A stretch of 64,000 bases of DNA from Patescibacteria group bacterium (GTDB lineage: Bacteria; Patescibacteriota; Minisyncoccia; Phycocordibacterales; UBA918), in assembly GCA_019752815.1 (NCBI GenBank), contig JAIELQ010000014.1, forward strand, positions 1,035-65,034, given 5' to 3'. The position numbers were made by a program, and so were the translations under genes. Under the pieces are notes generated by a model that made no database searches, was not told the origin of the DNA, and saw only the letters and a program-made list of their open reading frames with translations. Positions within the stretch are counted from its first letter, which is position 1; each line of letters begins with the position of its first letter. Below are positions 10,252 through 32,208 of this stretch, one piece after another.

Positions 10252-10944
10252 ATGACCTCACAATCTCAATCTGATACACCTAAAATTCCAAAAATTATCC
10301 ACTACATCTGGGTGGGCGGTAAACCGTTGTCGCCCTTGGCCGAGCAGTGTTTAGCGAGCTGGAAAAAATATTTACCTGAGTACGAACTACGATTGTGGAA
10401 CGAACTCAACAGCCCGATGGCTCATCCCTATGTGGCTGAAATGTATGATCAAAAAAAATGGGCGTTTGTGTCCGACTATATTCGTTTTTGGGCCCTTAAA
10501 AATGAGGGAGGAATTTACCTCGATACCGATATGGAAATCCTCAAACCCCTGACTTCACTGATTGAGACTGTGAGCGGGGAAGGGTTTGTAGGTACCAGTC
10601 GTAGCGGGCAAATTGAATCAAGTATCATTGGAGCTGTAGCCGGGGCTTCATTTGTGAACGAGGCACTCAAATTTTACGAGACTACCCTCGTTTACTCTAC
10701 CAAAGAAACTTCGCCATTGGTACTTAGCCGAGCTATCAATGTAAACCCTGCTAACGTAACTATTTTTCCCGCCACCCATTTTTTTCCCTGCGAAGAAGGT
10801 GAGTACTGCGGACCAAAGAAACTACAAGGAGCCTACGGCCGCCACCACTGGGCCGAATCCTGGGTACCGTATGCCCGAACGAGAAAGGTGCTACGCCGGG
10901 TTGGCGTTATGGGGTTGCTTAAAAAAATAAAGAATCTATTTTAG
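10252..10944 (+). CDS. glycosyltransferase, GT32-like (DXD sugar-binding region)
   Basis: IPKIIHYIWVGGKPLSP...YELRLWNE...DYIRFWALKNEGGIYLDTDME matches the Gly_transf_sug/OCH1-like signature. The track ORF starts at GTG 10192, overlapping the upstream gene; first ATG at 10252. Confidence 0.6.
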   Translation: MTSQSQSDTPKIPKIIHYIWVGGKPLSPLAEQCLASWKKYLPEYELRLWNELNSPMAHPYVAEMYDQKKWAFVSDYIRFWALKNEGGIYLDTDMEILKPLTSLIETVSGEGFVGTSRSGQIESSIIGAVAGASFVNEALKFYETTLVYSTKETSPLVLSRAINVNPANVTIFPATHFFPCEEGEYCGPKKLQGAYGRHHWAESWVPYARTRKVLRRVGVMGLLKKIKNLF

Positions 10945-10950
10945 TAGTTA

Positions 10951-10983
10951 AAAAATCCTTAGAATTTAATTCTAAGGATTTTT
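10951..10983. terminator. bidirectional rho-independent terminator between convergent genes
   Basis: Perfect 16-bp inverted repeat aaaaatccttagaatt-t-aattctaaggattttt, with an A-run and a T-run on either side. Confidence 0.75.
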
Positions 10984-10985
10984 AA

Positions 10986-11936
10986 TTACATGAACGGACT
11001 GCCTTTAAAGTAATTATTCGAAGCCAGCAGTGCATCAAGCTCTTCTTTGGGCATACAGTGTAATTCAGAGCTGTAACCTTGGGGCGGAAGTGTCACACTG
11101 CCATCAATATTTCGATAGTGGATGGTGTACATTTCATTCTGCGCATCGTAGGAGACGCGATCTGATTCAGCGTACGCAATCATTTGTTCATGAGCTTTTT
11201 CCGAAATACGAGGTTCGCCGATATCAAACTTCAGTCCAAACCGGTCACGGTAAATCTCAAAAATATCAGCAATTTTCATGGCCGGTAATGCCGGTACCAC
11301 ACTCACACCGGTTTGCTGTAATGCATACTCTACACATTCAGCCGCTCGGCCACCCTCAATCATGAATCGGGTCATTTCCGTGCCGTAGAGTTTCAAGGTA
11401 TAACCCTTTTCGATTGAATCCCAAATCAAGGGAATGACCGAACCGGTTGAATTGAATACGTTGCCATAAATTACTGACGATAACCGGGTCGTTTCTTTTT
11501 CGGCATTGATGATAAATAGTTCACCCCCCACAAACTTCATCGCACCATACAGGGTAGTCGCAGCGCGACTTTTATCAGTTGAAATAAAGGTGGCGGCCTT
11601 CATCTTATGTTCCAGTGCTACTCGGCGTGAGTTCACTGCACCAATCACAATCGTATCGATAGCTTCCTCAATGTTTTGGTCAACCGCTTCGATTTGTTTG
11701 AGTGATGCGGCAAAAATTCCAATGGTGTGACCAGCACTGGCTTTGTGTAACCGCTCATAATTTTGTACATTGCCAATTACGCAATTTACTTTGGGAAACT
11801 GTTTTTTTATAAAATAGTGTTTGGCTTCGTCACGGCTGTAGACCGTAATTTCGTTGTCGTCGTAGTAGCGTTTGATGAGGTGCTTTCCTAAAAAACCTGC
11901 TCCGCCTGTGATAAATATTTTTTCGCCTTTGAGCAT
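10986..11936 (-). CDS. NAD-dependent sugar epimerase/dehydratase (CapD/PseB-like UDP-sugar 4,6-dehydratase family)
   Basis: IFITGGAGFLGKHL Rossmann motif, YSRDEAKH, short-chain dehydrogenase/epimerase layout. 316 aa. Confidence 0.65.
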   Translation of the reverse strand: MLKGEKIFITGGAGFLGKHLIKRYYDDNEITVYSRDEAKHYFIKKQFPKVNCVIGNVQNYERLHKASAGHTIGIFAASLKQIEAVDQNIEEAIDTIVIGAVNSRRVALEHKMKAATFISTDKSRAATTLYGAMKFVGGELFIINAEKETTRLSSVIYGNVFNSTGSVIPLIWDSIEKGYTLKLYGTEMTRFMIEGGRAAECVEYALQQTGVSVVPALPAMKIADIFEIYRDRFGLKFDIGEPRISEKAHEQMIAYAESDRVSYDAQNEMYTIHYRNIDGSVTLPPQGYSSELHCMPKEELDALLASNNYFKGSPFM

Positions 11937-11997
11937 AGGAATATGGAATTAAGTAGGGCTAGTATATCACTGAAAACAACGCTTTGCCTAGTCAAAA

Positions 11998-12027
11998 TTG
12001 GCTCTATGAGCCTGGTATATCTATGAT
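11998..12027 (+). promoter_or_regulatory. candidate sigma70-type promoter
   Basis: TTGGCT (11998-12003), 18-nt spacer, TATGAT (12022-12027), immediately upstream of the ATGs at 12028 and 12040. Implies a leaderless or very short leader mRNA. Confidence 0.35.
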
Positions 12028-12039
12028 ATGCTAAACATC

Positions 12040-12984
12040 ATGAGTAGCATCTGTATCACCGGTATAGGAGGATATTTGGGCCTAGCAACGGCCTTTAGAT
12101 TGGTGTCAGAGGGATATTCGGTCGTAGGAATCGGCAGTAATGAACAAGCTGCCGAAAACCTGCCACCGGGGGTAGTCTATGCCGGAATTGATATTCGTGA
12201 TCCAGAAGCTCTGGCACAGTTTTTCACTGCTCATCAGGTGACCACGGTCTATCATTTTGCCGCCATTAAATATGTAGGCCAGTGTGAAGCAGATCCGGTA
12301 CTGTGTTATGACATAAACACTAACGGAACAAAAGCGGTGTTGGCAGCAATGAAAACTGCAGCCGTACCGAAAATTATCTACGCCTCAACTTATGCCGTCT
12401 ACGATTGGTCCGGAGACACTATTACGCTCACGGAAAAATCGAGCACCAACCCAGCTACGGTGTATGGCAAATCAAAATTACAAAGCGAACAAATGATTGC
12501 TGAGGCACATACAGCGGGAGAAATTTCCCGGTACCATATTCTCCGGTATGGAAACATTGTAGGGGCGGTACCAGAATTACCTACCCACACTCCACAAAGT
12601 TTTCTCGATAAGATGCTCGTTGCCACAAAAACTGGCGAGACTATCTCACTTACTGGTGGCGATTACACAACTGTCGACGGCACAGTCGCGCGAGATTTTA
12701 TTGATATACGAGATGCGGCTGCCGCCAATGTTCAGGTGCTGTCTCATCCCGAATCAGGAATCTATAACGTCTCCTCATATAGGGCGACAACACTGAAACA
12801 GCTTATGCAGTTGTGCGAGACAGTAACTGGCACAAAAATTTCTGTAACGATTAATCCAAAAATAGGGAATGAACCGTCTTCAATTACTATAGACAATACG
12901 CAACTTATAACGACGTTAGGATTTCAACCGAAGTATTCTCTCATTGAAACTATAGAAGCACTCGCACAAAAGCTAACGAGCTAA
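12040..12984 (+). CDS. NAD-dependent epimerase/dehydratase family protein
   Basis: ICITGIGGYLGLATAFRL Rossmann motif, YxxxK region (YGKSKLQSE). Alternative start at ATG 12028. The 3' end overlaps the convergent gene by 12 nt. Confidence 0.65.
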   Translation: MSSICITGIGGYLGLATAFRLVSEGYSVVGIGSNEQAAENLPPGVVYAGIDIRDPEALAQFFTAHQVTTVYHFAAIKYVGQCEADPVLCYDINTNGTKAVLAAMKTAAVPKIIYASTYAVYDWSGDTITLTEKSSTNPATVYGKSKLQSEQMIAEAHTAGEISRYHILRYGNIVGAVPELPTHTPQSFLDKMLVATKTGETISLTGGDYTTVDGTVARDFIDIRDAAAANVQVLSHPESGIYNVSSYRATTLKQLMQLCETVTGTKISVTINPKIGNEPSSITIDNTQLITTLGFQPKYSLIETIEALAQKLTS

Positions 12985-13797
12985 GGAGCCAATTTCTTTG
13001 GCTGCTAAATCAAAAAATTGCCCTGTGTCCCAGGCGGTGTAGCCTAATACGGCAAGGTCATACACCATGACTTTAGCGGCTTCAGCTGCGGAAATCATAA
13101 ACAGTACTTCATTCGCTGGTAGATTTTTCTCTGTCACGACAGCTAATCCTTTTTGGGTTAACTCCTCGTATACTTGCCAGGCATCTGAAGACGGCCCCTC
13201 AATTAAAGTGGTGGATTTACCAAGTTTGATATCGGTAAATCGTTCGATATTAGAAGTGATGATTATGATGTGTTTGGTATCGAGGTAATTTTTAATCGCT
13301 GCAAAATCGATGTGAGGATTGTATTTAGGGTGAAATGCAAGGGCGTCACCGTACTGCTTGTCTGTCCGTAAAAATTTTTTAAGGATAACTTTAGCGGCAA
13401 TCCAAATAGGCCATTCATGAGCAATACCTTCATGTATAAATTGCTCATTAGATTTTGTAATGAAGGTGTGCGGAAAACAAAAAAGTGTATTACTGTCTTG
13501 ACCGTCTTTTAAAACCGTCTCAAGTTTTTTAGCAAATGCTCGATTGTAACGAAATTGCCAGTTATTAAAATAAATACTAGAACCAAACAAGTACCCAAAG
13601 GTACCATCACCAATTCGAATAATTGAACGATCTGTTTCTGTGATGGCGGTAATAGTTTGGGCACCAGATAAAAATTTATAGTTCAAATAGTCTTTGCTCT
13701 TGGTATCAGCAATGTGTCTCCAGTATAAATTGGTACGCAAAAATGTCAGTATTAAAATAGGATTATCAAGAAATTTTTTGACACGTTGTCTCCACAT
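12973..13797 (-). CDS. hypothetical protein, possibly a GT-D (DUF1792-like) glycosyltransferase
   Basis: 274 aa, last gene of the - strand glycan operon. IRIGDGTFGY resembles the GDGE-type motif of DUF1792 proteins. Weak support. Confidence 0.3.
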   Translation of the reverse strand: MWRQRVKKFLDNPILILTFLRTNLYWRHIADTKSKDYLNYKFLSGAQTITAITETDRSIIRIGDGTFGYLFGSSIYFNNWQFRYNRAFAKKLETVLKDGQDSNTLFCFPHTFITKSNEQFIHEGIAHEWPIWIAAKVILKKFLRTDKQYGDALAFHPKYNPHIDFAAIKNYLDTKHIIIITSNIERFTDIKLGKSTTLIEGPSSDAWQVYEELTQKGLAVVTEKNLPANEVLFMISAAEAAKVMVYDLAVLGYTAWDTGQFFDLAAKEIGSLAR

Positions 13798-13808
13798 AAC
13801 AAGTAACT

Positions 13809-14630
13809 CTATGACTTTTTTATAAATAAATGATCGTGATGTGAAGTTTTCTCAAGTTTGAAATTATACGCTGAGACTAATTGATTGACATCATCTGGAG
13901 TACTACTTTCAATCATGAGACATGATCCCGGCAACATGTTTGTTAACGTACGCGACATTCCTGCTAGTACCTCTAATTCAAAACCCTCGGTATCAATTTT
14001 TATAAAACTAATTTTTGAGGCTTTATCAATTGAAACCACGTCATCAAATACCCTAACAGGCACCTGCAGAATATTATCGCTTTGAATATCGACAATACGG
14101 CCGCCTCCCTTATGTAACGGGTCGCAGGTAAAAGAAACAGTGCTGGTATTGCTTCCTAAGGCATAGTCATGCACGGTAATTTTTTGCGTTAGATTATTTA
14201 AGGAAATATTCTCTCTAAGAATATGCACTACTTCTGGATTTGGTTCGAAGGCTATGACTTCAGCGTATGAATATCTAGTTGGGGCGATAATTGAATACAA
14301 ACCCCGATTGGCTCCAATATCAACAAATACATCTTGAGTTGTTGGGGTAGTAAGCCAGTCTCGAAGGTGTTCTTCAAAATAATCAGAACAGATAGTAGTA
14401 CTGTCATCAAAAGCTTCGACTGCAAAAATCCCAGTTTTGTTTTTAATAATAAATTTATTTTTGGGAAGGCGTGCCACAAGCATGTGAATGGCCGTATCTA
14501 ACATACTGCTTGTGCGCTGTAACAATGAGAAAAGCTTTGTGAGCCAAAACGTTAAAAAAAATGCTGTACGTGAACCGTCAAGAAGTTCCGTAGCTGAATA
14601 TGATTCCTGCAAAACTGATAATTTATTCAT
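13809..14630 (-). CDS. FkbM-family SAM-dependent methyltransferase
   Basis: VDIGANRGLYS...FEPNPEV...IKIDTEGFELEVLAGM (FkbM domain). Start chosen at MNKLSV, 7 nt downstream of the preceding gene's stop; the track ORF is longer (to 14723). Confidence 0.65.
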   Translation of the reverse strand: MNKLSVLQESYSATELLDGSRTAFFLTFWLTKLFSLLQRTSSMLDTAIHMLVARLPKNKFIIKNKTGIFAVEAFDDSTTICSDYFEEHLRDWLTTPTTQDVFVDIGANRGLYSIIAPTRYSYAEVIAFEPNPEVVHILRENISLNNLTQKITVHDYALGSNTSTVSFTCDPLHKGGGRIVDIQSDNILQVPVRVFDDVVSIDKASKISFIKIDTEGFELEVLAGMSRTLTNMLPGSCLMIESSTPDDVNQLVSAYNFKLEKTSHHDHLFIKKS

Positions 14631-14637
14631 AAATTTT

Positions 14638-15402
14638 TTACTTAATAAAGGCTCGGATGATACGCATTTTAACATACAGCCAAAAAAGTGGAGATAAGTA
14701 CAAATTACGTCCTGATGCCTCACGAATAATCGTGGGAATTAGTCGTAACTGATCACTGGTGGAGCGGGTGCGGAGATTTAGTCCCGTAGCGTCGTAGCCG
14801 CTAGTTAGAGTGGTAACAATTGGTTCGTAATAAAAACGAGTATATGTGCCCAGTTCAGCGTAGAATAACCACTCCTCGGCTTGTTTAATGGTGGTAGGGA
14901 AGCGAAGTTTGTGGGTGTCTTTTGTAAGGAGTGACGCGTTAACGCAGTGAGTGGCATCACCTTTGAACCGTCGAGTGATTAAATAATCCCAAATGTATGA
15001 GTACATTTTTTTACTTTCACCAGTGGTAGTTGGGGTAGATTCGTTAGTGCCCCGGGCAGTTACTATCCAGGGTGATGGAGAAGTAGCAATGAGTGCAGTC
15101 AGTTTCGCGAGGGCTTCTGGCGCAAGTGTGTCATCGTCATCAAGAAAAATCACCCAGACACTCTGGCTCGAAACTTTCTCTAGTCCGCGGTTGCGACTGT
15201 AGTTCACTCCTCGATTTGAATCATTTTCTAAAATATGAATCCGACTATCATAAAAAGCTTTAATAGCTTCGGTTGCCCCATCACCTGGATTGTCATTAAC
15301 AATAATCATCTCCCAGTCAGGTACCGATTGAGCTATGACTGACTGTACCGCTCGCATCAATTCACTAGGTCGTTTATAGGTAGGAGTAATGATGGTAAAC
15401 AT
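14638..15402 (-). CDS. glycosyltransferase family 2
   Basis: MFTIITPTYKRPSEL...VIFLDDDDTL (GT2 DxD). Confidence 0.8.
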   Translation of the reverse strand: MFTIITPTYKRPSELMRAVQSVIAQSVPDWEMIIVNDNPGDGATEAIKAFYDSRIHILENDSNRGVNYSRNRGLEKVSSQSVWVIFLDDDDTLAPEALAKLTALIATSPSPWIVTARGTNESTPTTTGESKKMYSYIWDYLITRRFKGDATHCVNASLLTKDTHKLRFPTTIKQAEEWLFYAELGTYTRFYYEPIVTTLTSGYDATGLNLRTRSTSDQLRLIPTIIREASGRNLYLSPLFWLYVKMRIIRAFIK

Positions 15403-15502
15403 AGAAAGGTGATAGAGGAATAGATTTGCATTTATCGCAGAAGTTATGCAGATTGTAAGTAAAGCTTCTGTGCAAGTTTGGTCATGTCACGTAGGTTATA
15501 TT

Positions 15503-16192
15503 TTACTCTTTGGAAAAGTTCCCTGCACTTTTCTCGCCCCAGATACCCATGTAATAATCCCCCTGATCATGTTTAGTGCCGCCAAAGGTGAGTGTCCATT
15601 CGGGGAATTGAGATTGCCACCAGGCTTTGGATCTGATGTGCCACATGCGTTGATGCCACGGTTTTTTCTCACTCCAACACTCAGAAAATGCTAGTACTGA
15701 TCCAGCGGGTGCGACTGCACAAATAGCCCGGCATATTTTTTCTACCTCTTTATCGCGCAGGTGACTCAGAACGCAGCCGGTGATAAATATTGCTGGTTCA
15801 GTCAGTCTAAGCGTAGGAAGTAACTCCTCAGCAAAGCCTTGGTGCCACGTAATATTCGGGTAGGATTCAGCAGGGTAGGCACGTTTAGAGATATCAATCG
15901 CAGCTGCTGAAGGTTCAAGTGCAATGACGTTTAGACCAAGAGAATGGACTGAAGCTGCTACCCAGCCAGTACCACTGCCAATATCAACAGCGGTTTTTAC
16001 ATTAGGATGTTTAGCGAGTAGGTCGCGAATGCCGAAATCAGGCCAGTTGATACGATCTTCTTGAATGTTCTTGTAGCCAGCATCACGATCTTGTTCGAAT
16101 TTTCCTGGAGCTTCGTATTGCGCATTGTGTCGTTTAAAACTCTCTTCCTGACCTTGAATAAATGTGCTAAGTGCTTTAAGAATTTTTTTCAT
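15503..16192 (-). CDS. class I SAM-dependent methyltransferase
   Basis: VDIGSGTGWVAASV motif I, Methyltransf_11/12-like. Confidence 0.6.
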   Translation of the reverse strand: MKKILKALSTFIQGQEESFKRHNAQYEAPGKFEQDRDAGYKNIQEDRINWPDFGIRDLLAKHPNVKTAVDIGSGTGWVAASVHSLGLNVIALEPSAAAIDISKRAYPAESYPNITWHQGFAEELLPTLRLTEPAIFITGCVLSHLRDKEVEKICRAICAVAPAGSVLAFSECWSEKKPWHQRMWHIRSKAWWQSQFPEWTLTFGGTKHDQGDYYMGIWGEKSAGNFSKE

Positions 16193-16200
16193 AATTATGT

Positions 16201-17907
16201 TTACTTACCCAGCCAAAAACGAACCTGCCGGTAGATTGCTTTGGCTACAATACGAATATTTTGTGTGTAATGTAGCTTATATAATACACGTCTTAGAGGA
16301 TGGGGGAATGGATTTGCTACCACATCGATATAAATTTCCTCAAAGCGTTTAATTTGATTAGTGAGCTCATAGTGATCAGTAAAGCGTTGGCGGGCATTTT
16401 GTGACGTTTCTGTATAGTATGTTGTGTCCTGCCTCAGTTTCGTTAACTCGGCTGCGTACTCATCAATGGTTTTGAGCACCTTACCACCGGTACCAATACA
16501 TTCAATGTGGCCATTATTTATTTCGGATACGTGACTCACAATTGGTAGTCCAAAATACATTCCTTCAGCCATAGCCTGAGAGTTTACTTCACCATCCTTG
16601 CGGCCATGTGCGTACACATTAAGCGTAGATAAGAATTTAAAAATAATTTCTGAATCTCCAGTTGTTGGTAGGAACGTAATATTTTTTATGCCAAGTTCCA
16701 ACGCTTGTTTTTGGTAGAGGGTACTTCCTCCGAGCATAATGAACCAGGTATTCTCATTTTCAATTTTTTTGTAGGCTGCTAATGGAAAGGGGGAGAAAAT
16801 ACTATCAGAAGCTCGTTGGTGCATACCGTATATAAATTTGTTATCAAGCGATAACTCAGATCGATAGGTACCGTAATCTCGTGTTTCGATATCAATAGGC
16901 AGAGAAATAATCCGAACTCGTTTGCTATCACCACCACTTTTTATCCATTGATCGGCACTCCACTGGCATATGTGCAGTGATCGCGCAATATTGTATTGGT
17001 TATCGCAACCAGCTTTAAGGGCGATAATTTCGAGGATAGGTGTGCGTTTGATTTTTGTGAATGGGTATTCAGGGTGTCCCGGGCGACCAGTCTGAATAAC
17101 GTCGTATTTTGTTTCGTCAAATTTTTCCCAAAAATCTGTACCGTGCCATGTCTGATACGGGTTAACCATATTTACTTCCCCTACGGTAAAGGGAACAAGA
17201 TTAACATTGTGCGCCTTCATGTATGCAAGCCGGAAAGGGTCAGTATCTGGGTAGTTATATGTAATGCCTCGAAACGGGCTGGCATTACAATAATAGTAGT
17301 CCACATCAAAACGGGTTTTGTCTAAATTAGCAGCAATGATCTGCAACATTTTTTCAGTTCCTCCGGCAGACATTCCACCATATTTCACAAACGCGATTTT
17401 AATTTTAGATGGTGTGTACTGGGTAAGTACTTCTTCGGGGTGGTCAGTGCTAATTAAAATAGTTTGCGCCAGCCCAAATTTCCTACCGGCATCAATATCT
17501 GTTTGACTATCACCAATGAGTATTGATCGTGCAGTATCAATAGGATACTTTGCGGCTGCTTGGCGCAATAGCCCGTCATTGGGTTTTCGGCAATCACACG
17601 TTCCATCTAAATGTGGGCAATAGAATACATCAAGAATAGTTATTCCGTGCTCTTTTAATCCAGTAATCATATGATCGTGAATGGCTGTAAGAGATGCTAA
17701 CGTCATTTTTCCACGAGCCACTCCTTGCTGATTTGTAACTACGATAAACTCAAACCCATCACGAGCAAGAGTTTTTAGTACATTAAATATTCCTTGATTA
17801 AAGACAAAATCACTAACAGAGGTTATGTACTCATGTGGGGGAGCATTGACGTTAATTACTCCATCACGGTCCAAAAAAGCAATTTTTTTAACCCTGACGT
17901 TTTTCAT
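16201..17907 (-). CDS. gmhB: bifunctional fusion: D,D-heptose 1,7-bisphosphate phosphatase (GmhB, HAD) plus GT-B (GT4-like) glycosyltransferase
   Basis: N-terminus: FLDRDGVINV, CDCRKPNDGLL and GDSQTDIDAG (GmhB signatures). C-terminus: YAHGRKDGEVNSQAMAEGMYFGLPIVS (GT4 EX7E region). 568 aa. Confidence 0.7.
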   Translation of the reverse strand: MKNVRVKKIAFLDRDGVINVNAPPHEYITSVSDFVFNQGIFNVLKTLARDGFEFIVVTNQQGVARGKMTLASLTAIHDHMITGLKEHGITILDVFYCPHLDGTCDCRKPNDGLLRQAAAKYPIDTARSILIGDSQTDIDAGRKFGLAQTILISTDHPEEVLTQYTPSKIKIAFVKYGGMSAGGTEKMLQIIAANLDKTRFDVDYYYCNASPFRGITYNYPDTDPFRLAYMKAHNVNLVPFTVGEVNMVNPYQTWHGTDFWEKFDETKYDVIQTGRPGHPEYPFTKIKRTPILEIIALKAGCDNQYNIARSLHICQWSADQWIKSGGDSKRVRIISLPIDIETRDYGTYRSELSLDNKFIYGMHQRASDSIFSPFPLAAYKKIENENTWFIMLGGSTLYQKQALELGIKNITFLPTTGDSEIIFKFLSTLNVYAHGRKDGEVNSQAMAEGMYFGLPIVSHVSEINNGHIECIGTGGKVLKTIDEYAAELTKLRQDTTYYTETSQNARQRFTDHYELTNQIKRFEEIYIDVVANPFPHPLRRVLYKLHYTQNIRIVAKAIYRQVRFWLGK

Positions 17908-19508: not shown

Positions 19509-19509
19509 A

Positions 19510-21022: not shown

Positions 21023-21024
21023 AG

Positions 21025-24310: not shown

Positions 24311-24423
24311 ATGTAATGTGAAGTATAACCTATGTATTAAAGCTGAAGTTACATTTTATAGCTAAGAAACTAAAAGCGCCGCGATTTGTAGATTTTACTT
24401 TTTACCGCTACTATTGCCAGTAT

Positions 24424-25332
24424 ATGAAATTATTCCGGACCGTGGCTGAAGTGATTTTTATCCTAATTCATCCAATTTTTAAACCAGAGTGGGTGCAGTT
24501 ATTTTTGCGACGATTTATTGCATTGCCATATAGTATGGTCAAGTTTTTGGATTACCAAGGAGTAGTACCGTTTGTGGTAAATGGTAAAGAGTTATTTATG
24601 CGGTCGTACAATACCCCCATTGAGATCACAGTGTTTTGGCGGGGAATATTTAACGGTCGCGAAGGGATGGAACTTTCGGTGTGGTCAGACTTATCAAAGA
24701 GTGCAACAACGGCGATTGATATCGGGGCCAATAACGGTATTTATGCGTTGGTATCAAGTGCGTATCCGAATATAAAAATCCATGCGTTTGAACCAGTGCC
24801 AAATGTTTTTGACATGTTGCTTGAGAACAGATTTTTAAATCCTACCAGTAACATCATGCCGCATCAGATGGTGGTGAGTAATCAAAATGGAACGCAAACA
24901 TTGTATGTTCCAAAAGTGGGCTGGGTAGATGTAGCATCACTCGACAAAGAATTTGCCAGTCGCTATACCGAAGGTCGGGAGCTGGTGCAGATTCAGTGTC
25001 GGGCAATCACTCTCGATACATTTTTAACACAAGAGGCCGTGACAGTGGGTGAGCGAGTGATTTGTAAAATTGATGTTGAAGGCGCCGAACCACTTATTTT
25101 GGCGGGAGCGAAAGAAGCCATCGAAAAATATAACGTAGCCTTTTTAATTGAAGCGCTCGATACGTCGGCTTTTGATGAGATTAAAAAGTTCTTCCCCAGT
25201 GACTATCAAATTTACGGTGTCGATAGTAAGTATAAAAAATTATTTAAGACACAAGTTTCATCTGATCGGGCCAATAACTATTTGTTTATCAAACAATTAC
25301 CAACTGAGTTGGTTGGGCATGTAGGGGAGTAG
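24424..25332 (+). CDS. FkbM-family SAM-dependent methyltransferase (second copy)
   Basis: AIDIGANNGIYAL...FEPVPNV...KIDVEGAEPLILAG. Divergent from the flippase operon. Confidence 0.7.
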   Translation: MKLFRTVAEVIFILIHPIFKPEWVQLFLRRFIALPYSMVKFLDYQGVVPFVVNGKELFMRSYNTPIEITVFWRGIFNGREGMELSVWSDLSKSATTAIDIGANNGIYALVSSAYPNIKIHAFEPVPNVFDMLLENRFLNPTSNIMPHQMVVSNQNGTQTLYVPKVGWVDVASLDKEFASRYTEGRELVQIQCRAITLDTFLTQEAVTVGERVICKIDVEGAEPLILAGAKEAIEKYNVAFLIEALDTSAFDEIKKFFPSDYQIYGVDSKYKKLFKTQVSSDRANNYLFIKQLPTELVGHVGE

Positions 25333-25408: not shown

Positions 25409-25443
25409 TTTTTTAGTTTCCATTGGCTAGAAGAGAAGAAATA

Positions 25444-26103
25444 ATGGCTGATTATGGATTGGTTCCTTCGTATGAATTACCCCCTGAGTTCCAGTCAGTC
25501 TGGGACGAGATTACTACCTCCAACTTTTACCCACACCGGGCTGAAGCGGTAGTGATTTTTCCTGGACTGCTTAATCCTAATGTGCGTGACACATTTGAAA
25601 TGGTGTGGCTGGATGTTCTGATAAAATTTACGCACCGTTTCATCGCCGGTATTCATACGCCCCACGGGCAGGCAGAGATGAGCACCTTGAGCAAGGCCTC
25701 AGATTGGGCAATCTGGCAGGTTGAAGCCTGGAACACTCCTGATCAGGCGCGATGGACTATCGGGCAGTTGCAGCACGGAGGCATGAACTCTGTTGCGCTT
25801 TACGCACCGAAGTTTCATTTGCCGCGGGCGACGATGACGCTTATCAAAGCCGCTACGGATGCGGGCTGGCAGGGCAAGATCTATCCCCGTGGCTGGTATC
25901 CTGGCAAGGGCAAGCTGGTTCTGGCCGGTTTCGACAATCTGGCTACGCATGATGAACTCATTCCTGGTGAACAAGCCAGGTGGGTGAATTACACGACAAA
26001 GGGAGATGTTGCGACTCCTGAACAGTGGGCGACATTTCGGCCAGAATTACCGCGTAATTCAGTCTCTCGCATGTTTGCAGATTCGCACTGTGGTGATGGA
26101 TAG
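25444..26103 (+). CDS. hypothetical protein (no family recognised)
   Basis: The track starts at 25423; the ATG at 25444 follows the SD. Own promoter and own terminator. Higher GC than the neighbouring glycan genes. 219 aa. Confidence 0.5.
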   Translation: MADYGLVPSYELPPEFQSVWDEITTSNFYPHRAEAVVIFPGLLNPNVRDTFEMVWLDVLIKFTHRFIAGIHTPHGQAEMSTLSKASDWAIWQVEAWNTPDQARWTIGQLQHGGMNSVALYAPKFHLPRATMTLIKAATDAGWQGKIYPRGWYPGKGKLVLAGFDNLATHDELIPGEQARWVNYTTKGDVATPEQWATFRPELPRNSVSRMFADSHCGDG

Positions 26104-26150
26104 TTCATTATAAAACGAGTTCCAAACTTATTCTTAAAAATGCGACGCAA

Positions 26151-26178
26151 AAGCGCGACCCCTGGGCCGCGCTTTTTT
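26151..26178 (+). terminator. rho-independent terminator
   Basis: aagcgcg / cgcgctt stem with a 10-nt loop, followed by TTTTTT (26173-26178). Confidence 0.6.
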
Positions 26179-26220
26179 CTATTCGTTTCTTTTTTAGCGC
26201 GAGAGTTGTTGTATGTATAT

Positions 26221-27222
26221 ATGCAACCTCCGAAAAAAAAGATTGTGGTAATAGGCGGCGGTACGGGAACGTATACGTTACTGCGGGGGTTAAAAGCGTA
26301 CGCTCATGCGGTTGATATAACGGCGATTGTGACGATGGCTGATTCGGGTGGTTCAACCGGACGATTGCGGGATGAGTTTGGTGGTTTGCCTATGGGTGAT
26401 GCTCGGATGGCGCTGTGTGCACTGGCTGACGATGTTGATGCCGATGCCGACGTGCTGCGGGAATTATTTTTATATCGATTTGCTAAAGGGGAGGGTCTAT
26501 CCGGACATAATTTTGGAAATTTACTTTTGACGGCCTTGACTGAAATTGTAGGAGATACAAGTACGGCAATTGAAACCGCGGGAAAAATTTTACGAATTAA
26601 AGGGTCAGTGATTCCGGTGACGAGCGACAACGTACAGTTAGTGGCTACCTATACCAATGGTGTCGTAGTGACGGGAGAACATTATATTGATACACCTCCA
26701 GTTGAAATGCATGATTATCGGATTATTAATTTAGCGGTGACCCCCAAGGCTACGATTAATCCCAAAGCGGCGACTGCAATTACCGAGGCGGATATGGTAG
26801 TACTTGGTCCCGGAGATTTGTATACCAGCATTTTGGCGAACTGTGTGGTTGATGGGGTACAAGAGGCGGTGAGTGCAAGCAACGCAACGATGGTGTACGT
26901 GTGTAACTTGATGTCACGCAGTGGGCAAACAATTGGTATGCATAGTAGGGAGTATGTACATGAAATCGCACAATACGCCGGAGTGATGCCGCAGCATGTC
27001 ATTTATAATACAGCACCATTTTCGCCAACACTGCTCGCCTCATATTCACAGGAAGGCAACCATCAGGTTTTAAATAATATGGATTCGGATTTGTGTACCG
27101 TCCATGAGATAGATGTCGTGTCGACGCAGGCGTATGTAACCAAAGCGGGTGATACTGTCACGCGCAGTTTAATTCGGCATGACAGTGAAAAATTATCTCA
27201 GGCAATTATTAACTTATTGTAG
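26221..27222 (+). CDS. yvcK: YvcK/CofD-family gluconeogenesis factor-like protein (UDP-sugar binding)
   Basis: KKKIVVIGGGTGTYTLLRGLK...AIVTMADSGGSTGRLRDEFG (UPF0052 signature). The track ORF starts upstream, inside the terminator; the ATG at 26221 is preferred. Confidence 0.8.
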   Translation: MQPPKKKIVVIGGGTGTYTLLRGLKAYAHAVDITAIVTMADSGGSTGRLRDEFGGLPMGDARMALCALADDVDADADVLRELFLYRFAKGEGLSGHNFGNLLLTALTEIVGDTSTAIETAGKILRIKGSVIPVTSDNVQLVATYTNGVVVTGEHYIDTPPVEMHDYRIINLAVTPKATINPKAATAITEADMVVLGPGDLYTSILANCVVDGVQEAVSASNATMVYVCNLMSRSGQTIGMHSREYVHEIAQYAGVMPQHVIYNTAPFSPTLLASYSQEGNHQVLNNMDSDLCTVHEIDVVSTQAYVTKAGDTVTRSLIRHDSEKLSQAIINLL

Positions 27223-27276: not shown

Positions 27277-28602
27277 ATGTCTGATCCTTCTCACTTATCA
27301 AAATTTGATGTCACACAACGCCAAAAGGCGACATTGCAGTACGTGATTGCCGAGGAAGAAAGTGTTAAAAAGCGAGGAGCGGTTGGTCCAAAAGTATCAA
27401 TTGCCGAAGCGCGGCAAGGCGCAACACACTATCAAGCAGTGTCAGATCGTGAGACGACACGTTTACTTTTTATTTCTCAAGAAACATCACTCCTTAATCA
27501 AACGACGCAGAGTCTTGATGGGTATCTCAATATGTCGGACGTGTTTGATGAGGTACATATTTTGGTGATTCAGGTTGGTAAAGCAATCCGCAATCCGGTG
27601 TTACGGGTGACGGATAATGTGTGGCTCTATACGGTATCAGCTCCTGCCGGATTGGCGCTTATGGCGGCAGCTAAAGACATGATTAAACAGCAGCTTGAAT
27701 TTGCAGATGGATTCAGAGCCGATTTGATTGTGGCCCGAGACCCGCTTCTGTCAGGGTATCTCGCACTGTGGGCGAGTCGACACTACGACCGTCCGGCACA
27801 ACTACACATGGTTGAAGATTTTACCCAAAAAAAGCGTTTCCAAAAATTTTCCCACCCGCGACTAATGTCCTGGTTGTACTCGTATGTCTGCAAACAGTTT
27901 GATAGTATTCGAACGAATACCGATAGTCTGACCCAAAAATTGCAGGCCAAGTACCCGCACAAAACCGACATTAAAACCTTGCCGCGGTTTCACAATTTTG
28001 CCAGTTTAGCTCAAGGGGTAGCAACGATAAATATTAAAGACAAGTATCGCCAGTTTTCATTTATTATTCTGTACGTTGGTCAACTTAATTTTGAGTCAAA
28101 AGCGTACCAAGCAATTGATGCGGCACGGAACCTGATGCGCAGTCCGAAGGTGGGATTGGTTATTCTCGGTGATGGTGATGCTCGTGCAGAGTTTATTAAA
28201 CGAGCAGAATTATTGGGTATTGGATCGCAAGTGGTGTTTGAAAAATCAGCTGTTGACGTGTATAGCTATTTAAAATCAGCTGATGTGTTGCTAGTGCCTG
28301 ATACTGATGAAGAGAGTGATGAGCTGGCCATTCAAGCAGCTGCGGCAGGAATTCCGGTTGTTATGGCCGAGTCTCCAAACCGGCATGATTTATTTTTAGC
28401 TGATGAGGCGGCATTATATTTTAATGGGAATGACATTAATGGTATGTCGAATCAAATGAAAAAAGTATTAAATGATCCGGGTGTCAGGCAAGACTTGGTG
28501 CGCCACGCTCGTGACACGGTGGCACTAAAATTACATGAAGATCCGCTCGCGTATCGGTTGGCGTATCGGGACTCAATCGAAGCAGCCCTCTTCACCGAAT
28601 AA
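27277..28602 (+). CDS. glycosyltransferase family 4 (GT-B)
   Basis: C-terminal Glycos_transf_1 region ...LLVPDTDEESDELAIQAAAAGIPVVMAE. TATACT lies 8 nt before the ATG. Confidence 0.75.
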   Translation: MSDPSHLSKFDVTQRQKATLQYVIAEEESVKKRGAVGPKVSIAEARQGATHYQAVSDRETTRLLFISQETSLLNQTTQSLDGYLNMSDVFDEVHILVIQVGKAIRNPVLRVTDNVWLYTVSAPAGLALMAAAKDMIKQQLEFADGFRADLIVARDPLLSGYLALWASRHYDRPAQLHMVEDFTQKKRFQKFSHPRLMSWLYSYVCKQFDSIRTNTDSLTQKLQAKYPHKTDIKTLPRFHNFASLAQGVATINIKDKYRQFSFIILYVGQLNFESKAYQAIDAARNLMRSPKVGLVILGDGDARAEFIKRAELLGIGSQVVFEKSAVDVYSYLKSADVLLVPDTDEESDELAIQAAAAGIPVVMAESPNRHDLFLADEAALYFNGNDINGMSNQMKKVLNDPGVRQDLVRHARDTVALKLHEDPLAYRLAYRDSIEAALFTE

Positions 28603-28872
28603 AACGCCCAAAAATGTTTAATTTCTGCGTTGCGCTGCGGTAAAATATTTCTCACCGTACGTTGGGTACGGCTCGCAATATTTTCCTTGCGCGCCTTGAA
28701 CTTAAATCATTTTTGAACGTTTTATTGTTTGTTGACATCAAGAACCAAGTATTTTTTGGTATAAATGGATGTAATGAATTGCATTCAATTCTGAAACTCC
28801 TACTGCACATAAATGGTACTGAGGATAGCGACAGAGTAATTTGCCAAGTAAATAGAATATACTAGTTACAAT

Positions 28873-29700
28873 ATGCACGTTCAAAAAAATGCTCCCCAAT
28901 TTATTGGTATTGGTGGTAAAGGGTGTGGGCTGGCGCTCGTGACCGACCTCCTTGATGTCCATCCACAAATTAATAGCCCAATTCCGTCGCTACGGTTTTT
29001 TAGTGGGAGCGCCTATACTGAAAATGATTTATCAAAATACGTTGAGGCGTTATGTTTGGTGCCACCGCCGGCGGTGTGTGGCGAATCATGTCCTGAATAC
29101 TTAACCACGAGCGGAGTGGCAGAGAGAATTGCCCATACCTACCCCGATACCAAATTATTTGTAGTAGTACGAAACCCAATTGATCGGGCGATTGTTGAGT
29201 ACCAGCATGCGCGAGCTGCTCAAAAGATTCCAAAAAACATGACGTGTGCGCAGTATCTGACGAATCATCCTGAAGCTCAGACTGACGGTTTCTTTGGACG
29301 ACACCTGACACAATATTTCACCATTTACACGTCGCTTCAATTGTATGTGATGGTCTATGAAGATTTTGTAAAAGAACCTTTGAAATCAATGCAGAAACTG
29401 TATGATTTTTTAGAGATTGATAAAGAGTTTGTCCCCAAACGATTAGCCGCCTATGCGCCACCCCCGGAAGAACCAAAACATCCAGGACGCATCAAGAGGC
29501 TCTTTAGGTTGATAGGGAAGTTGCTGAAAAAAATTCATCCCAAAAAAGAGTTTGGTCCGCTCACGCCACCGGCACCTACTCATCTTAATTATTTTAGCGA
29601 GGCTGAGCTCGCAGTGTTTAAAAGAACCTTTGCTGCGGATGCGGCACAGTTGTCTAATTTGGTGCATAGAGACATGGTGGTTGAATGGAGTTTGGAGTAG
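28873..29700 (+). CDS. sulfotransferase-family protein (putative)
   Basis: FIGIGGKGCG (5'-PSB-like K loop), VVVRNPIDRAIVEY (3'-PB RNPxDR motif), YEDFVKEPLKSMQKLYDFLEI. TATACT lies 9 nt before the ATG. Confidence 0.5.
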   Translation: MHVQKNAPQFIGIGGKGCGLALVTDLLDVHPQINSPIPSLRFFSGSAYTENDLSKYVEALCLVPPPAVCGESCPEYLTTSGVAERIAHTYPDTKLFVVVRNPIDRAIVEYQHARAAQKIPKNMTCAQYLTNHPEAQTDGFFGRHLTQYFTIYTSLQLYVMVYEDFVKEPLKSMQKLYDFLEIDKEFVPKRLAAYAPPPEEPKHPGRIKRLFRLIGKLLKKIHPKKEFGPLTPPAPTHLNYFSEAELAVFKRTFAADAAQLSNLVHRDMVVEWSLE

Positions 29701-29876
29701 TTGCCTCTAAAAACGAAGTATTTCGTTGTTGCATTTCAAAAAATAATATTCAACGTACAAAAAGTACGCCTCATATTATTTTTTTCATGCGCCTAGAACT
29801 ACACTCGTTTTTAAAGACAACTTTCGACTAATTTATGTTAATGACTGGGTTTTTATCTAGTTTTGCACTGACTGTG

Positions 29877-29905
29877 GCACCTCGTCTAGGGTGGGGTGCT
29901 TTTTT
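29877..29905 (+). terminator. weak candidate terminator
   Basis: gcacc / ggtgc 5-bp stem followed by TTTTTT. Confidence 0.3.
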
Positions 29906-29991
29906 GGATATGGTATATTTATCACTATTATGAACTCAGGGTCACCTGAGGGCACAGGTATAGTATCCATTAATTATAATTTATAAAGAGT

Positions 29992-32208
29992 ATGTCGAAC
30001 CAAACACAAAAGTCACAAAATGGCATCGCTGATATTTTAAAAGGAATAATTTTTATTGGTTTGTTTGCGGTCCCGTTTTTGACACTCTATGTCGAAAATG
30101 ATTTTTTCTTTCCTTTTATTACCGGTAAAAACTTTTTGTTTCGGATTATTGTAGAAATTGTGTTGGCGGCTTGGGTAGTGTTGGCACTCTATGATACGCG
30201 GTACCGTCCAAAGTTTTCCTGGATTCTGGGAACGTTTGGGATTTTAATTGCAGTGATGTTAGCTGCGAACTTGCAGGCCGAGCACGTGCTGACTGCTATC
30301 TGGAGTAACTTTGAACGAATGGATGGGTACGTCACACTGGTGCACGTGTTCGCCTATTTTGTGGTGCTCGGTACTATGCTCCAAACACCAAAGGCCTGGT
30401 CGTATTTCCTCCATACGACGGTAGTGGTGGCTGGTATTGTAGCGTTGAAGGGGCTTTCACAGTTATCGGGTAGTGCGACTCGGGTAGATAGTACGCTTGG
30501 TAACGCAGCCTACATGGCCGTGTACATGTTGTTCCATATCTTCTTTTTGTTCTATCTGTTTATCCAAACTAAGGTCACGCCCTATCGTGTTGTCTACGTG
30601 TTGTTGGCCATCCTCTTTATGTATGTGTTGCTGCAAACCGGAACACGGGGGACAGCAATTGGATTAGTGACCGGTTCGATTGCGATGGTGGGGTACATTG
30701 CGTTGTTTGGTTCACGATTTAAACAAGCGCGAAAATATGCGTTGGGGGCACTTGTGGGTATTGTGCTTTTGTCAGCTGGGTTTATGGCTGCACGAGACAC
30801 GGCATTTATTCAAAATAACCCGTCTCTCTCACGTGTTGCCAATATTGACTTAGGGAACGACCTGCGCATTCGATCTATTATTTGGGGGATGTCAGTCGAA
30901 GGTATCAAAGAAAAACCATTGCTCGGCTGGGGTCAAGGTAACTTCAACTACGTTTTTAATGAGCAGTACGATCCGCGCCTCTTCCAGCAAGAACAATGGT
31001 TCGATCGCGTGCACAACATTGTGTTTGACTGGTTGATTGCAGGTGGTATTATCGGACTCGTATCATACTTCTCGATTTTTGCAGCTCTGTTCTACTATCT
31101 AGTAATCAAGCCAATTCGTCATCCCGATACATCGATGACAGTGATTGAACGAGGGGTGCTCGTGGGGTTGATTGTGGGCTACGTTACGCACAATTTGGTG
31201 GTATTTGATAATATCGTCAGTTACATTTTCTTTGGTACTATCATTGCGCTCATTCACAGCAAGATTAGTACACCGATACCAAAAGTGATGGCGTTTAAAA
31301 TGCCATCAGTTCTCGTGACACAAATTGTGTTGCCGGCGATGATTGTCGTTACAGGAGCAGTTGTCTATTTTGTGAACATTCCGAGTATGCAAGCAGCGGG
31401 TGATGTGATTGTTGCGTTCCAAGGAACAACACTTGAAGCGCGGTACGATGGATTTGATGTGGCACTTAATCGTGATTCATTTGCTAAACAAGAAATTGTT
31501 GAACAATTTGCGCAACAAGCAATGGGTATTGCCCAAACGACTGAAGGTGTGGATCCGGCTACAAAAGAAAAATTCATGACCCGGGCTGAGACAGAGTTGC
31601 TTAAGATGGTAGAAGAAAAACCAGGCGATGCTCGACTCCATGTATTTCTAGCAAGTTACTACCGGGCTACGGGAAATATTGAGAAGGCTAAAGAACAAAT
31701 GGCTACCGCACGGTCTCTTTCGCCAGGTAAGCAAGCAATTATCCTACAACAAGGGGCAATTGAATTGTCGTTGGGTAACAACACTGGCGCGCGGGATTTC
31801 TTTAAAGAAGCGTACGAGCTCGATACAACCAATGACGAAGCCAAAGAGTATTACATTGCATCGTTGTTCTATACCAAAGAGCCAGCAATGGCACAAACAC
31901 TCATTACTGAATCAACTCCCGAGTTCACGGCTCGATTGGCAGCAAGCGACTTTGTTTTAAGTGCTGTGAATGCAGCGGGCGAATATGCCACCCTCGCCAC
32001 ACTCTACGAAGCGCGTGTTACAAACAATGGTAGTAATGCCCAGGACTGGGCGAGCCTTGCCTTTGTGTACTACCAACTTAAACAAAACGATAAAGCTATC
32101 GAGACACTAACGCGCGCTAAAACAGCCGTGCCGTCGTTTAGTACTGCCGCAGAGTGTTTCAGTGCTAACATTGCAAAAGGAGTGTCTCCAGAAGTTGGTT
32201 GTCAGTAG
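29992..32208 (+). CDS. O-antigen-ligase/Wzy-like polytopic membrane protein with C-terminal TPR domain
   Basis: About 12 TM helices in the first 460 aa, then soluble TPR-like repeats (HVFLASYYRATGNIEKAKEQ..., AFVYYQLKQNDKAIE). A perfect TATAAT lies upstream. Confidence 0.55.
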   Translation: MSNQTQKSQNGIADILKGIIFIGLFAVPFLTLYVENDFFFPFITGKNFLFRIIVEIVLAAWVVLALYDTRYRPKFSWILGTFGILIAVMLAANLQAEHVLTAIWSNFERMDGYVTLVHVFAYFVVLGTMLQTPKAWSYFLHTTVVVAGIVALKGLSQLSGSATRVDSTLGNAAYMAVYMLFHIFFLFYLFIQTKVTPYRVVYVLLAILFMYVLLQTGTRGTAIGLVTGSIAMVGYIALFGSRFKQARKYALGALVGIVLLSAGFMAARDTAFIQNNPSLSRVANIDLGNDLRIRSIIWGMSVEGIKEKPLLGWGQGNFNYVFNEQYDPRLFQQEQWFDRVHNIVFDWLIAGGIIGLVSYFSIFAALFYYLVIKPIRHPDTSMTVIERGVLVGLIVGYVTHNLVVFDNIVSYIFFGTIIALIHSKISTPIPKVMAFKMPSVLVTQIVLPAMIVVTGAVVYFVNIPSMQAAGDVIVAFQGTTLEARYDGFDVALNRDSFAKQEIVEQFAQQAMGIAQTTEGVDPATKEKFMTRAETELLKMVEEKPGDARLHVFLASYYRATGNIEKAKEQMATARSLSPGKQAIILQQGAIELSLGNNTGARDFFKEAYELDTTNDEAKEYYIASLFYTKEPAMAQTLITESTPEFTARLAASDFVLSAVNAAGEYATLATLYEARVTNNGSNAQDWASLAFVYYQLKQNDKAIETLTRAKTAVPSFSTAAECFSANIAKGVSPEVGCQ

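Follow-up and report, generated by a model that had tools for sequence, protein, structure and literature searches.

The 64-kb window analyzed here, from contig JAIELQ010000014.1 of a Patescibacteria group bacterium, holds a strain-variable glycan-assembly locus (~10.2-25.3 kb) together with a conserved Paceibacteria envelope neighborhood made up of yvcK, a family 4 glycosyltransferase (GT4) gene, a sulfotransferase-like gene, wzy_C-TPR, murB, and secA. Our analysis suggests that the product of these genes is a lipid-linked, O-methylated, heptose-containing oligosaccharide that would be flipped by Wzx and transferred outside the cell by the Wzy_C-TPR protein, an interpretation to which we give a probability of roughly 60%. 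Open reading frames (ORFs) of the window were scored against Pfam and NCBIfam profiles, and every type of gene that the original prediction, made from the sequence letters, had named in this interval was recovered in its place.

With genomes of ~1 Mb, Patescibacteria (the candidate phyla radiation, CPR) live attached to other cells; next to nothing is known of the chemistry of their surface. Here, ~20 kb is devoted to a decorated glycan, with predicted de novo synthesis of an activated heptose. The arrangement recalls a serotype locus of the O-antigen type in cells that have no outer membrane, a plan that we take to fit the organism's identity as a patescibacterium. The biochemistry is unsurprising, all components coming from known families, and the locus offers concrete candidates for further work: a GmhB::GT4 fusion, the methyltransferase MT11, and Wzy_C-TPR.

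Heptose cassette, fused glycosyltransferase, and methyltransferases

The core of the variable locus is a 12-gene operon on the minus strand (24310→12973) with intergenic gaps of at most 100 nt and several overlapping stop and start codons, in the order wzx, GT2-like, galE, a sugar-1-phosphate nucleotidyltransferase (NTase) gene, MT11, hddA, gmhA, gmhB::GT4, MT25, GT2, fkbM, and GT-D (MT denoting methyltransferases and GT glycosyltransferases). This same-strand packing, together with a gene order shared by sister genomes, places the predicted clustering of the heptose genes far beyond chance. Rather than being scattered in sister genomes, the heptose genes keep their order in nine distinct fusion-bearing loci (sister and comparison loci are given L numbers here), in which GalE-(NTase)-MT11-HddA-GmhA-GmhB::GT form a colinear block, hereafter the heptose cassette, with identities of 70-94% for GmhA and 58-88% for HddA. 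Labels on these loci include Kaiserbacteria, Taylorbacteria, Doudnabacteria, generic Patescibacteria and, in some cases, an automatic 'Saccharibacteria'. The nearest species-level relative, a Candidatus Kaiserbacteria metagenome-assembled genome (MAG; locus L004, 80% identity), shares its gene order with the window from the L,D-transpeptidase/carboxypeptidase gene and that for the TraD-like ATPase across the operon, with identities of 79-93% in the flanks, 68-95% for cluster genes, and 80-95% within the cassette; its wzx side bears genes that differ from those in the window.

GmhA, HddA, and GmhB each have a clear best match in NCBIfam and among solved structures, which bears out the family assignments of the original prediction. 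The putative sedoheptulose-7-phosphate isomerase GmhA (17888-18556, minus strand; SIS_2, 62.6 bits, above the Pfam cut-off) matches phosphoheptose isomerase best in NCBIfam (TIGR00441, 93 bits against an equivalog cut-off of 209) and Campylobacter jejuni GmhA best among structures (1tk9, 85 bits, versus 55 for DiaA); its true start is probably an internal ATG, giving a protein of ~203 aa. The HddA-type GHMP kinase (18492-19508, minus strand), a predicted D-glycero-D-manno-heptose-7-phosphate 1-kinase of the alpha-anomer route, scores 179 bits with the HddA model NF049969 (curated cut-off 600), with the next family at 78 bits, and its closest structures are heptose kinases (3k85, WcbL 4usk, and 4n3o, ~165 bits, versus 58 for fucokinase). 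For the GmhB domain, the NCBIfam models PRK08942 and TIGR01656 give 148 bits (cut-off 178) and 129 bits (above the cut-off of 84), respectively, and the top structures are 4pnh, 3l8e, and 2gmw at 94 bits. Its HAD and Cys/His Zn-loop motifs are intact: DRDGVIN (DxDGxIN), TNQ, CPH..CDCRKP, and GDSQTD (GDSxxD). Since the curated equivalog thresholds are not reached, we treat the three assignments as family-level rather than as certified equivalogs; sub-threshold scores are expected for a deep-branching lineage. By the chemistry of these families, GmhA would isomerize sedoheptulose-7-phosphate, the HddA-type kinase would phosphorylate C1 in the alpha configuration, and the GmhB domain would remove the phosphate at C7.

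The original prediction listed gmhB as a gene of the cluster; the enzyme domain is present, but it forms the N-terminal domain of a fusion with a GT4 that had gone unreported. The GmhB::GT4 protein (16201-17907, minus strand; 568 aa) combines the phosphatase (aa 1-165) with a retaining GT-B glycosyltransferase (aa ~168-530) and ends in an amphipathic tail. An AlphaFold2 (AF2) model built with 63 homologues has a predicted local distance difference test score (pLDDT) of 92.6, and in fold searches its N-terminal domain superposes on GmhB (3l8h and 3l8e) and its C-terminal domain on the retaining GT4 enzymes HepE, MshA, BshA, WaaG, and PglA. The GT4 EX7E motif (E440-E448) is invariant across the 63 homologues. 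A PDB sequence search with the fused GT domain returned no match, and donor specificity was ruled out as something to be read from the fold, the GT4 relatives being generic and using UDP-, GDP-, and ADP-sugars. The fusion is present in ~30 protein clusters, alongside hundreds of stand-alone GT homologues of ~408 aa (52-62% identity), and our literature searches found no account of a GmhB-glycosyltransferase fusion. Because it is fused to GmhB and the block travels as a unit, the GT4 is the best candidate for the enzyme that would add alpha-heptose to the growing glycan.

Up to four S-adenosylmethionine (SAM)-dependent methyltransferases would O-methylate the sugars of this glycan. The original prediction looked to FkbM-type enzymes for methylation of heptose, by analogy with Campylobacter, and the analogy itself is backed by Cj1426, the heptose 6-O-methyl transferase of the Campylobacter capsule, assigned genetically from a knockout and from nuclear magnetic resonance (NMR) of phase variants (PMC3546167) and called an FkbM-family methyltransferase in an annotation table (PMC9112162). 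In the present locus, however, the enzyme linked to the cassette is the class-I methyltransferase MT11, and neither FkbM gene is part of the conserved block. FkbM1 (13809-14723, minus strand; Methyltransf_21, 66.8 bits; TIGR01444, 105 bits against a cut-off of 37.7) is missing at the same GT2/GT-D junction in the otherwise colinear L004 and L005; at a guanine-plus-cytosine (GC) content of 0.372, among the lowest in the window and tied with that of MT11, it looks like a recent strain-specific single-gene insertion. With its annotated GTG start it shares 86 nt with the upstream GT2 gene, which makes an internal true start probable. FkbM2 (24424-25332, plus strand; Methyltransf_21, 55.7 bits; TIGR01444, 77 bits against 37.7) is divergent from wzx, and the same divergent Wzx/FkbM2 pair recurs in the heptose-free Nomurabacteria locus L047 (45% and 42% identity).

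Both remaining methyltransferases are class-I SAM enzymes on the minus strand. MT25 (15503-16192; Methyltransf_25, 37.6 bits) co-occurs with the GT4-family GT also in loci without heptose genes. MT11 (19510-20280; Methyltransf_11, 96.6 bits) lies inside the cassette and belongs to a tight family of ~252 aa whose named sources are all Patescibacteria. It is found immediately upstream of HddA in seven of the nine distinct fusion loci (64-91% identity), the exceptions being L006, where a different class-I methyltransferase occupies the slot, and L008, where the flank is too short; a Magasanikbacteria member of the family is likewise near GHMP, SIS, and HAD genes. Because it travels with the heptose genes, MT11 is the best candidate for a heptose O-methyltransferase, and heptose is plausibly the methylated sugar. 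About 7 kb away from the locus with its four SAM-dependent methyltransferases, a SAM-I riboswitch (RF00162, 2445-2559, plus strand; 52 bits, gathering score 44) lies ahead of a shortened SAM synthetase gene (2748-3695, 315 aa).

The capsule region of C. jejuni (Cj1423 hddC, Cj1424 gmhA2, Cj1425 hddA, and Cj1426 methyltransferase) resembles this locus in that GDP-heptose genes adjoin a methyltransferase and in being strain-variable. It differs in that its capsule is exported by a Kps/ABC system in a diderm cell, that its heptose-remodeling epimerases and reductases are absent here, and that the heptose-linked methyltransferase is class I here and not FkbM. Phase-variable tracts of the Campylobacter kind were not found: no G or C tract reaches 8 nt, and the longest A/T tracts are of 8-9 nt.

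Several observations weigh against the product we propose. All of the heptose enzymes fall short of their NCBIfam equivalog cut-offs; the cassettes of L001 and L020 have no NTase; neither the window nor the called genes of L001 encode a priming phosphoglycosyltransferase, a chain-length regulator, or an LCP ligase; and a 48% homologue of MT11 lies in a glycan locus (L046) without heptose genes. In addition, among 19 informative loci (those with a GT at least 48% identical to the fused one and with flanks of 5 kb or more to both sides), nine have no heptose kinase within 10 kb, their stand-alone GTs being 52-58% identical. Given such kinase-free loci, the fused GT may not be specific for heptose, and the sugar that is methylated need not be heptose. 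Loci that have no heptose genes rule out a strict tie of either the fused GT family or MT11 to such genes.

These counts bear on an alternative in which the fusion is an accident of neighboring genes: GT4, MT25, and the GT2-like enzyme would build a heptose-free methylated core common in Patescibacteria, and heptose would be added by another GT (GT2 or GT-D) or would not be the methylated sugar. Across the 19 loci, the GT is fused in 8, has an HddA homologue within 10 kb in 10, and keeps Wzx in 14, and the frequency of GT2-like (13/19) and MT25 (11/19) neighbors within 3 kb favors this alternative, as does L009, where a frame of Wzx..GT2-like, GT, MT25...sulfotransferase-like, GT4, YvcK contains no heptose gene. 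On the other hand, the cassette and the fused GT form one unit in L007, L011, L020, and L025, in which GT2-like and MT25 lie on the opposite strand; the stand-alone GT loci L010, L012, and L013 have heptose genes 3-5 kb away; and heptose genes could sit elsewhere in genomes that appear to lack them. We consider an accidental fusion rather unlikely. GT2-like and GT4 are adjacent in genomes without the cassette. The most economical explanation is that a widespread scaffold received the heptose block as an accessory insertion between these two genes, and that the final gene of the block became fused to the GT.

Wzy_C-TPR and proposed transfer of the glycan

Wzy_C-TPR (29992-32208, plus strand; Wzy_C, 58.9 bits, plus TPR matches), a membrane protein of the O-antigen-ligase family with a TPR tail, is encoded by a gene that overlaps murB. 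It has more than 4000 full-length homologues, of which the best 120 are all ~730 aa long and 53-88% identical, with named sources including Parcubacteria, Paceibacterota, Nomurabacteria, and Pacebacteria. The same gene order (Wzy_C-TPR, MurB, SecA, Obg, GatB, two unknown genes, and a giant protein) occurs in L047 (Candidatus Nomurabacteria, complete genome CP060227.1) and L048 (a Paceibacterota MAG), at identities of 53-54% for Wzy_C-TPR, 47-49% for MurB, 61% for Obg, 63% for GatB, and 72-74% for SecA. In both, the 10 kb upstream of Wzy_C-TPR is a glycan locus, with differing contents: L047 has three GT4, three FkbM, Wzx, two GT-D, and GT25 genes and no heptose genes, while in L048 it encodes LicD, a methyltransferase, Wzx, SDRs, and a cytidylyltransferase-like plus cupin protein.

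Residues R219, R281, R294, and H341 are invariant in 48 Wzy_C-TPR homologues, as is the pattern H341-N-x9-G352-xx-G355, which we take to be a WaaL ligase motif; two cysteines of the tail, C722 and C737, are invariant as well. A hydropathy scan gives four transmembrane segments, with Lys/Arg-rich loops between them, from the large external loop (270-340) to the tail, and by this simple method the TPR tail would lie outside the cell. In the AF2 model (pLDDT 86), the tail is a TPR superhelix of ~270 aa with ~9 repeats that matches CTPR and OGT TPR structures; the Wzy_C membrane domain matched nothing in a PDB sequence search.

The O-oligosaccharyltransferases (O-OTases) WsfB of Paenibacillus alvei and PglL are also reported to carry Wzy_C with a C-terminal TPR (PMC2943079, a review of S-layer glycosylation). 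Like WsfB, Neisseria PglL, and the ligase WaaL, Wzy_C-TPR has a Wzy_C domain whose large external loop carries conserved Arg and His, and it shares the C-terminal TPR with the first two; its gene is conserved beside variable glycan genes, as expected of a glycan-tolerant enzyme. It differs in that its membrane part has no detectable similarity to solved structures and its TPR tail is much longer. Literature searches found no account of a Patescibacteria Wzy_C-TPR family, of CPR O-antigen or envelope glycosyltransferases, or of Parcubacteria glycosylation. Wzx (23030-24310, minus strand; Polysacc_synt, 68.5 bits; Polysacc_synt_3, 43 bits), the MOP flippase encoded by the first gene of the operon, would flip the finished unit, and Wzy_C-TPR, a candidate glycan ligase or O-OTase, would transfer or polymerize it onto a surface acceptor, either a protein or a wall polymer.

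Alternatively, the product might be a polymerized secondary cell-wall or capsular polysaccharide, with Wzy_C-TPR acting as a Wzy polymerase or a peptidoglycan or lipid ligase and no protein O-glycosylation taking place. Wzx and a single Wzy_C-family protein make up a minimal Wzx/Wzy set, wzy_C-TPR sits beside other peptidoglycan genes in addition to its overlap with murB, and the Pfam Wzy_C family spans polymerases and ligases. Yet Wzy polymerases usually vary as their repeat units do, ligases and O-OTases being the glycan-promiscuous enzymes, and Wzy_C-TPR is a conserved core gene whose adjoining glycan genes change completely; a ligase or O-OTase fits a conserved transferase in such a place better than a polymerase. 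The invariant His-Asn-x9-Gly-xx-Gly, presumably typical of ligases, also counts against a polysaccharide, which we regard as possible but clearly less probable than a transferred oligosaccharide.

The oligosaccharide would be assembled on a polyprenyl carrier by six GT domains (GT32-like, GT-D, GT2, the GT4 of the fusion, GT2-like, and the GT4 near yvcK); the original prediction was right to expect several glycosyltransferases here and counted four or five. In a search for priming transferases that took in window ORFs of at least 120 aa, there was no Bac_transf or Glycos_transf_4 match, nor was there one in the called genes of L001, and the window has no Wzz/PCP family match. If the Wzx route is used, the primer enzyme must therefore be encoded elsewhere.

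S-layer-like protein glycosylation, raised by the original prediction, is an attractive analogy. Beyond the conserved core, two giant proteins are encoded at 40832-49876 (plus strand; 3014 aa, with seven LVIVD repeats and a beta-propeller) and 50699-60247 (plus strand; 3182 aa, with a faint EPTP match), followed at 61052-62098 (plus strand) by a protein with a WxL-interacting peptidoglycan-binding domain. Together these are candidate surface complexes and possible acceptors of the glycan. More speculatively, Paceibacteria might carry a general O-linked protein glycosylation system in which Wzy_C-TPR moves strain-specific methylated oligosaccharides, here with heptose, onto giant LVIVD-repeat or other surface proteins, the hypervariable locus would be a serotype determinant for host attachment or phage evasion, and GmhB::GT4 would be a dedicated alpha-heptosyltransferase coupling the last pathway steps to transfer; we hold this fuller scheme to be a long shot.

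Predicted activation of the heptose

The original prediction placed all four steps of a GDP-heptose route in the cluster. The families of GmhA, HddA, and GmhB stand, but the fourth enzyme, taken to be HddC-like, resembles GDP-mannose pyrophosphorylases instead. This NTase (20267-21022, minus strand; NTP_transferase, 149 bits) has mannose-1-phosphate guanylyltransferase as its top NCBIfam match (125 bits), versus 80 bits with the HddC model (cut-off 300), and among structures scores 110 bits with human GMPPB (7d72) and 72 bits with Yersinia HddC (5xhw). It is a probable guanylyltransferase for heptose-1-phosphate, and because its best matches are mannose-1-phosphate guanylyltransferases, GDP would be the most likely activating nucleotide and GDP-D-glycero-alpha-D-manno-heptose the most likely product. 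The kinase, too, speaks for the alpha/GDP route and against the ADP route, as far as its family assignment goes: a GHMP-family HddA kinase separates the alpha/GDP route from the beta/ADP route of HldE, and no HldE-type kinase was found in the window.

The heptose might instead be activated as ADP-, CDP-, UDP-, or dTDP-heptose, or the NTase might make GDP-mannose destined for a glycan that contains mannose. With several other NTase classes the score is 100-120 bits, above that of the HddC model, and in L001 and L020 the cassette has no NTase, so the activating nucleotide may vary among relatives; L001, L004, and L048 carry the cytidylyltransferase-like plus cupin gene within the locus. Against this, the best matches in both NCBIfam and the PDB are guanylyltransferases, six of the eight informative sister loci have the NTase between galE and MT11-hddA, and neither manB nor manA is in the window. 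To our knowledge, all characterized HddA-type routes (Aneurinibacillus, Campylobacter, Burkholderia, and Yersinia) end in GDP-heptose. We therefore judge a nucleotide other than GDP, or a mannose product, to be improbable.

The cytidylyltransferase-like (PF01467) plus cupin (PF01050, mannose-6-phosphate-isomerase-type) protein, of ~242 aa, recurs in Paceibacteria glycan loci beside SDR genes (L001 1-532, L004 284-1012, and L048 5817-6551) and does not occur in the window. A possible role is that of an alternative enzyme for forming or modifying sugar nucleotides.

The S-layer glycan cluster of Aneurinibacillus thermoaerophilus, compared here from established knowledge of that system rather than by sequence comparison, has the same four steps (gmhA, hddA, gmhB, and hddC) with an alpha-type GHMP kinase, clustered with glycosyltransferases, in a cell without an outer membrane that bears a surface-bound glycan. 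In the present locus, by contrast, gmhB is fused to GT4, the NTase is GDP-mannose-pyrophosphorylase-like, the cassette includes a class-I methyltransferase and galE, and export is by Wzx, where Aneurinibacillus uses an ABC transporter; no S-layer gene was identified in the window. Heptose synthesis in this lineage is itself not new, since the heptose module has already been noted as Paceibacteria-specific among freshwater CPR from KEGG-style annotation (PMC9166423).

Composition of the locus and neighboring genes

The original prediction described the whole interval as an AT-rich glycan island. Calculated by gene, a modest dip in GC is real and is confined to 12973-25332 (0.37-0.44 per gene), and yvcK, GT4, the sulfotransferase-like gene, and wzy_C-TPR have normal GC. 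The gene set at 10192-25332 has a GC of 0.414 versus 0.481 for the remainder of the window (p=1e-5 for gene GC, Mann-Whitney) and a GC at third codon positions (GC3) of 0.375 versus 0.434 elsewhere (Mann-Whitney p=0.004), while genes at 27277-32208 (0.453) lie near the window mean of 0.457. The glycan genes are there, but the core gene yvcK (26140-27222) falls among them, and the right third of the interval is conserved core of normal GC. Because Wzy_C-TPR-MurB-SecA-Obg-GatB are conserved while the upstream glycan genes differ, the supposed low-GC island is one allele of a glycan locus that is hypervariable and occupies a fixed position in the chromosome, beside a conserved ligase-like gene.

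O-antigen and capsule loci at fixed sites, such as galF-gnd in Enterobacteriaceae, share with this locus conserved flanks (here yvcK and wzy_C-TPR-murB-secA), variable content, and lower GC; they differ in that the genomes here are Patescibacteria of ~1 Mb and the ligase-like gene is itself a conserved flank. GC dips are common in surface-glycan loci, and the dip gives no sign of recent foreign origin; a foreign-GC signature of the cassette was rejected, cassette GC following that of each host locus (0.34-0.43). A true foreign genomic island, acquired recently from outside Patescibacteria, is thus very improbable: the GC difference, the strain-specific insertion of FkbM1, and the comparison with L001 (heptose enzymes 78-85% identical, YvcK 52%) would suit it, but the named closest homologues of the fusion, MT11, and Wzy_C-TPR are all from Patescibacteria, L004 has flanks about as similar (TrwB-like 93%, LDT-DacC 79%) as its cassette (80-95%), cassette GC tracks the host, and no integrase, tRNA gene, or repeat boundary marks island borders in the window.

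The YvcK-GT4-sulfotransferase-like series is syntenic in L001 and L009, at identities of 52-55%, 44%, and 31-33%, respectively; in the window, its GT4 (27277-28602, plus strand) matches Glycos_transf_1 at 66 bits. The sulfotransferase-fold protein (28873-29700, plus strand; 275 aa; Sulfotransfer_1, 47.5 bits against a cut-off of 22), on which the original prediction rested a possibly sulfated glycan, finds 3rnl (58 bits) and heparan-sulfate 3-O-sulfotransferases (3-OSTs, 40-48 bits) among structures. The motifs that bind the sulfate donor 3'-phosphoadenosine 5'-phosphosulfate (PAPS) are degenerate: where the 5'-phosphosulfate-binding (5'-PSB) motif K-x-G-T-T/S is expected (KKGGT in 3-OST), it has GGKGCGL, with the Lys and no Thr/Ser, and where the 3'-phosphate-binding (3'-PB) motif R..S is expected it has RNPIDRAIVEY, with Val in the Ser position. 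Its positional orthologues (L001 18585-19457 and L009 16351-17199) lack the Lys and the first Arg, and no PAPS-synthesis genes (ATP sulfurylase or adenosine 5'-phosphosulfate kinase) were found in the window. Given these degenerate motifs, sulfation appears unlikely, and since the PAPS-binding residues are unconserved in the Paceibacteria family, the sulfotransferase-fold proteins beside GT4-yvcK may have a non-sulfotransferase or non-catalytic role. Between this gene and wzy_C-TPR, a strong terminator-like hairpin (29876-29900, plus strand; 11-bp stem with 6 GC pairs, and a T-run) suggests that wzy_C-TPR-murB is a separate transcription unit. Promoter-like sites were not more frequent than in shuffled sequence (41 observed, 46.8 expected).

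To the left of the operon lie three further glycan genes. The first encodes a GT32-like DXD glycosyltransferase (10192-10944, plus strand; Gly_transf_sug 48.6, TcdA_TcdB 45.4, and Caps_synth 29.5 bits), which is syntenic in Kaiserbacteria L004 (70% identity) and has a probable ATG start at 10252. It is followed by a short PseB/CapE-type nucleotide-sugar 4,6-dehydratase (10986-11936, minus strand; Polysacc_synt_2, 137 bits; PseB, 165 bits against a cut-off of 408), whose translation shows STDK and YGAMK motifs and whose substrate is probably a UDP-N-acetylhexosamine (UDP-HexNAc), and by an SDR epimerase/reductase (12028-12984, plus strand; Epimerase, 151 bits; GalE model, 179 bits against a cut-off of 262), its likely partner; the two would supply a 6-deoxy-HexNAc. 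The final operon gene encodes the GT-D fold glycosyltransferase (12973-13797, minus strand; GT-D, 54 bits; TIGR03728, 65 bits). Elsewhere in the operon, on the same strand, are GT2 (14638-15402; Glycos_transf_2, 94.7 bits), the GT2-like enzyme (21999-22973; Glyco_tranf_2_4, 35.5 bits), and GalE, a UDP-hexose 4-epimerase and the first gene of the cassette (21025-22002; TIGR01179, 378 bits against a cut-off of 262). GalE, which would supply UDP-Gal or UDP-GalNAc, is 54-83% identical in every fusion locus with a long enough flank (all but L008).

The genes to the right of the operon are the second FkbM gene, a gene for a 226-aa protein, yvcK, GT4, the sulfotransferase-like gene, and wzy_C-TPR. 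The 226-aa protein (25423-26103, plus strand) has no Pfam or NCBIfam match and the highest GC of the region (0.518); a 48% homologue sits within the glycan cluster of L005, between an SDR and a PseB-like gene, so it may belong to the glycan pathway. Beyond the left end of the locus, one ORF (6463-8073, plus strand; 79% identity in Kaiserbacteria L004) encodes both a YkuD L,D-transpeptidase domain and a Peptidase_S11 D,D-carboxypeptidase domain. The next (8091-10220, plus strand) encodes a TraD/VirD4/TrwB-like coupling ATPase whose C-terminal ~300 aa form a Pro-rich tail of low complexity; its ATPase part is 93% identical in L004 and 85% identical in L005 and always forms the left border of the glycan locus.

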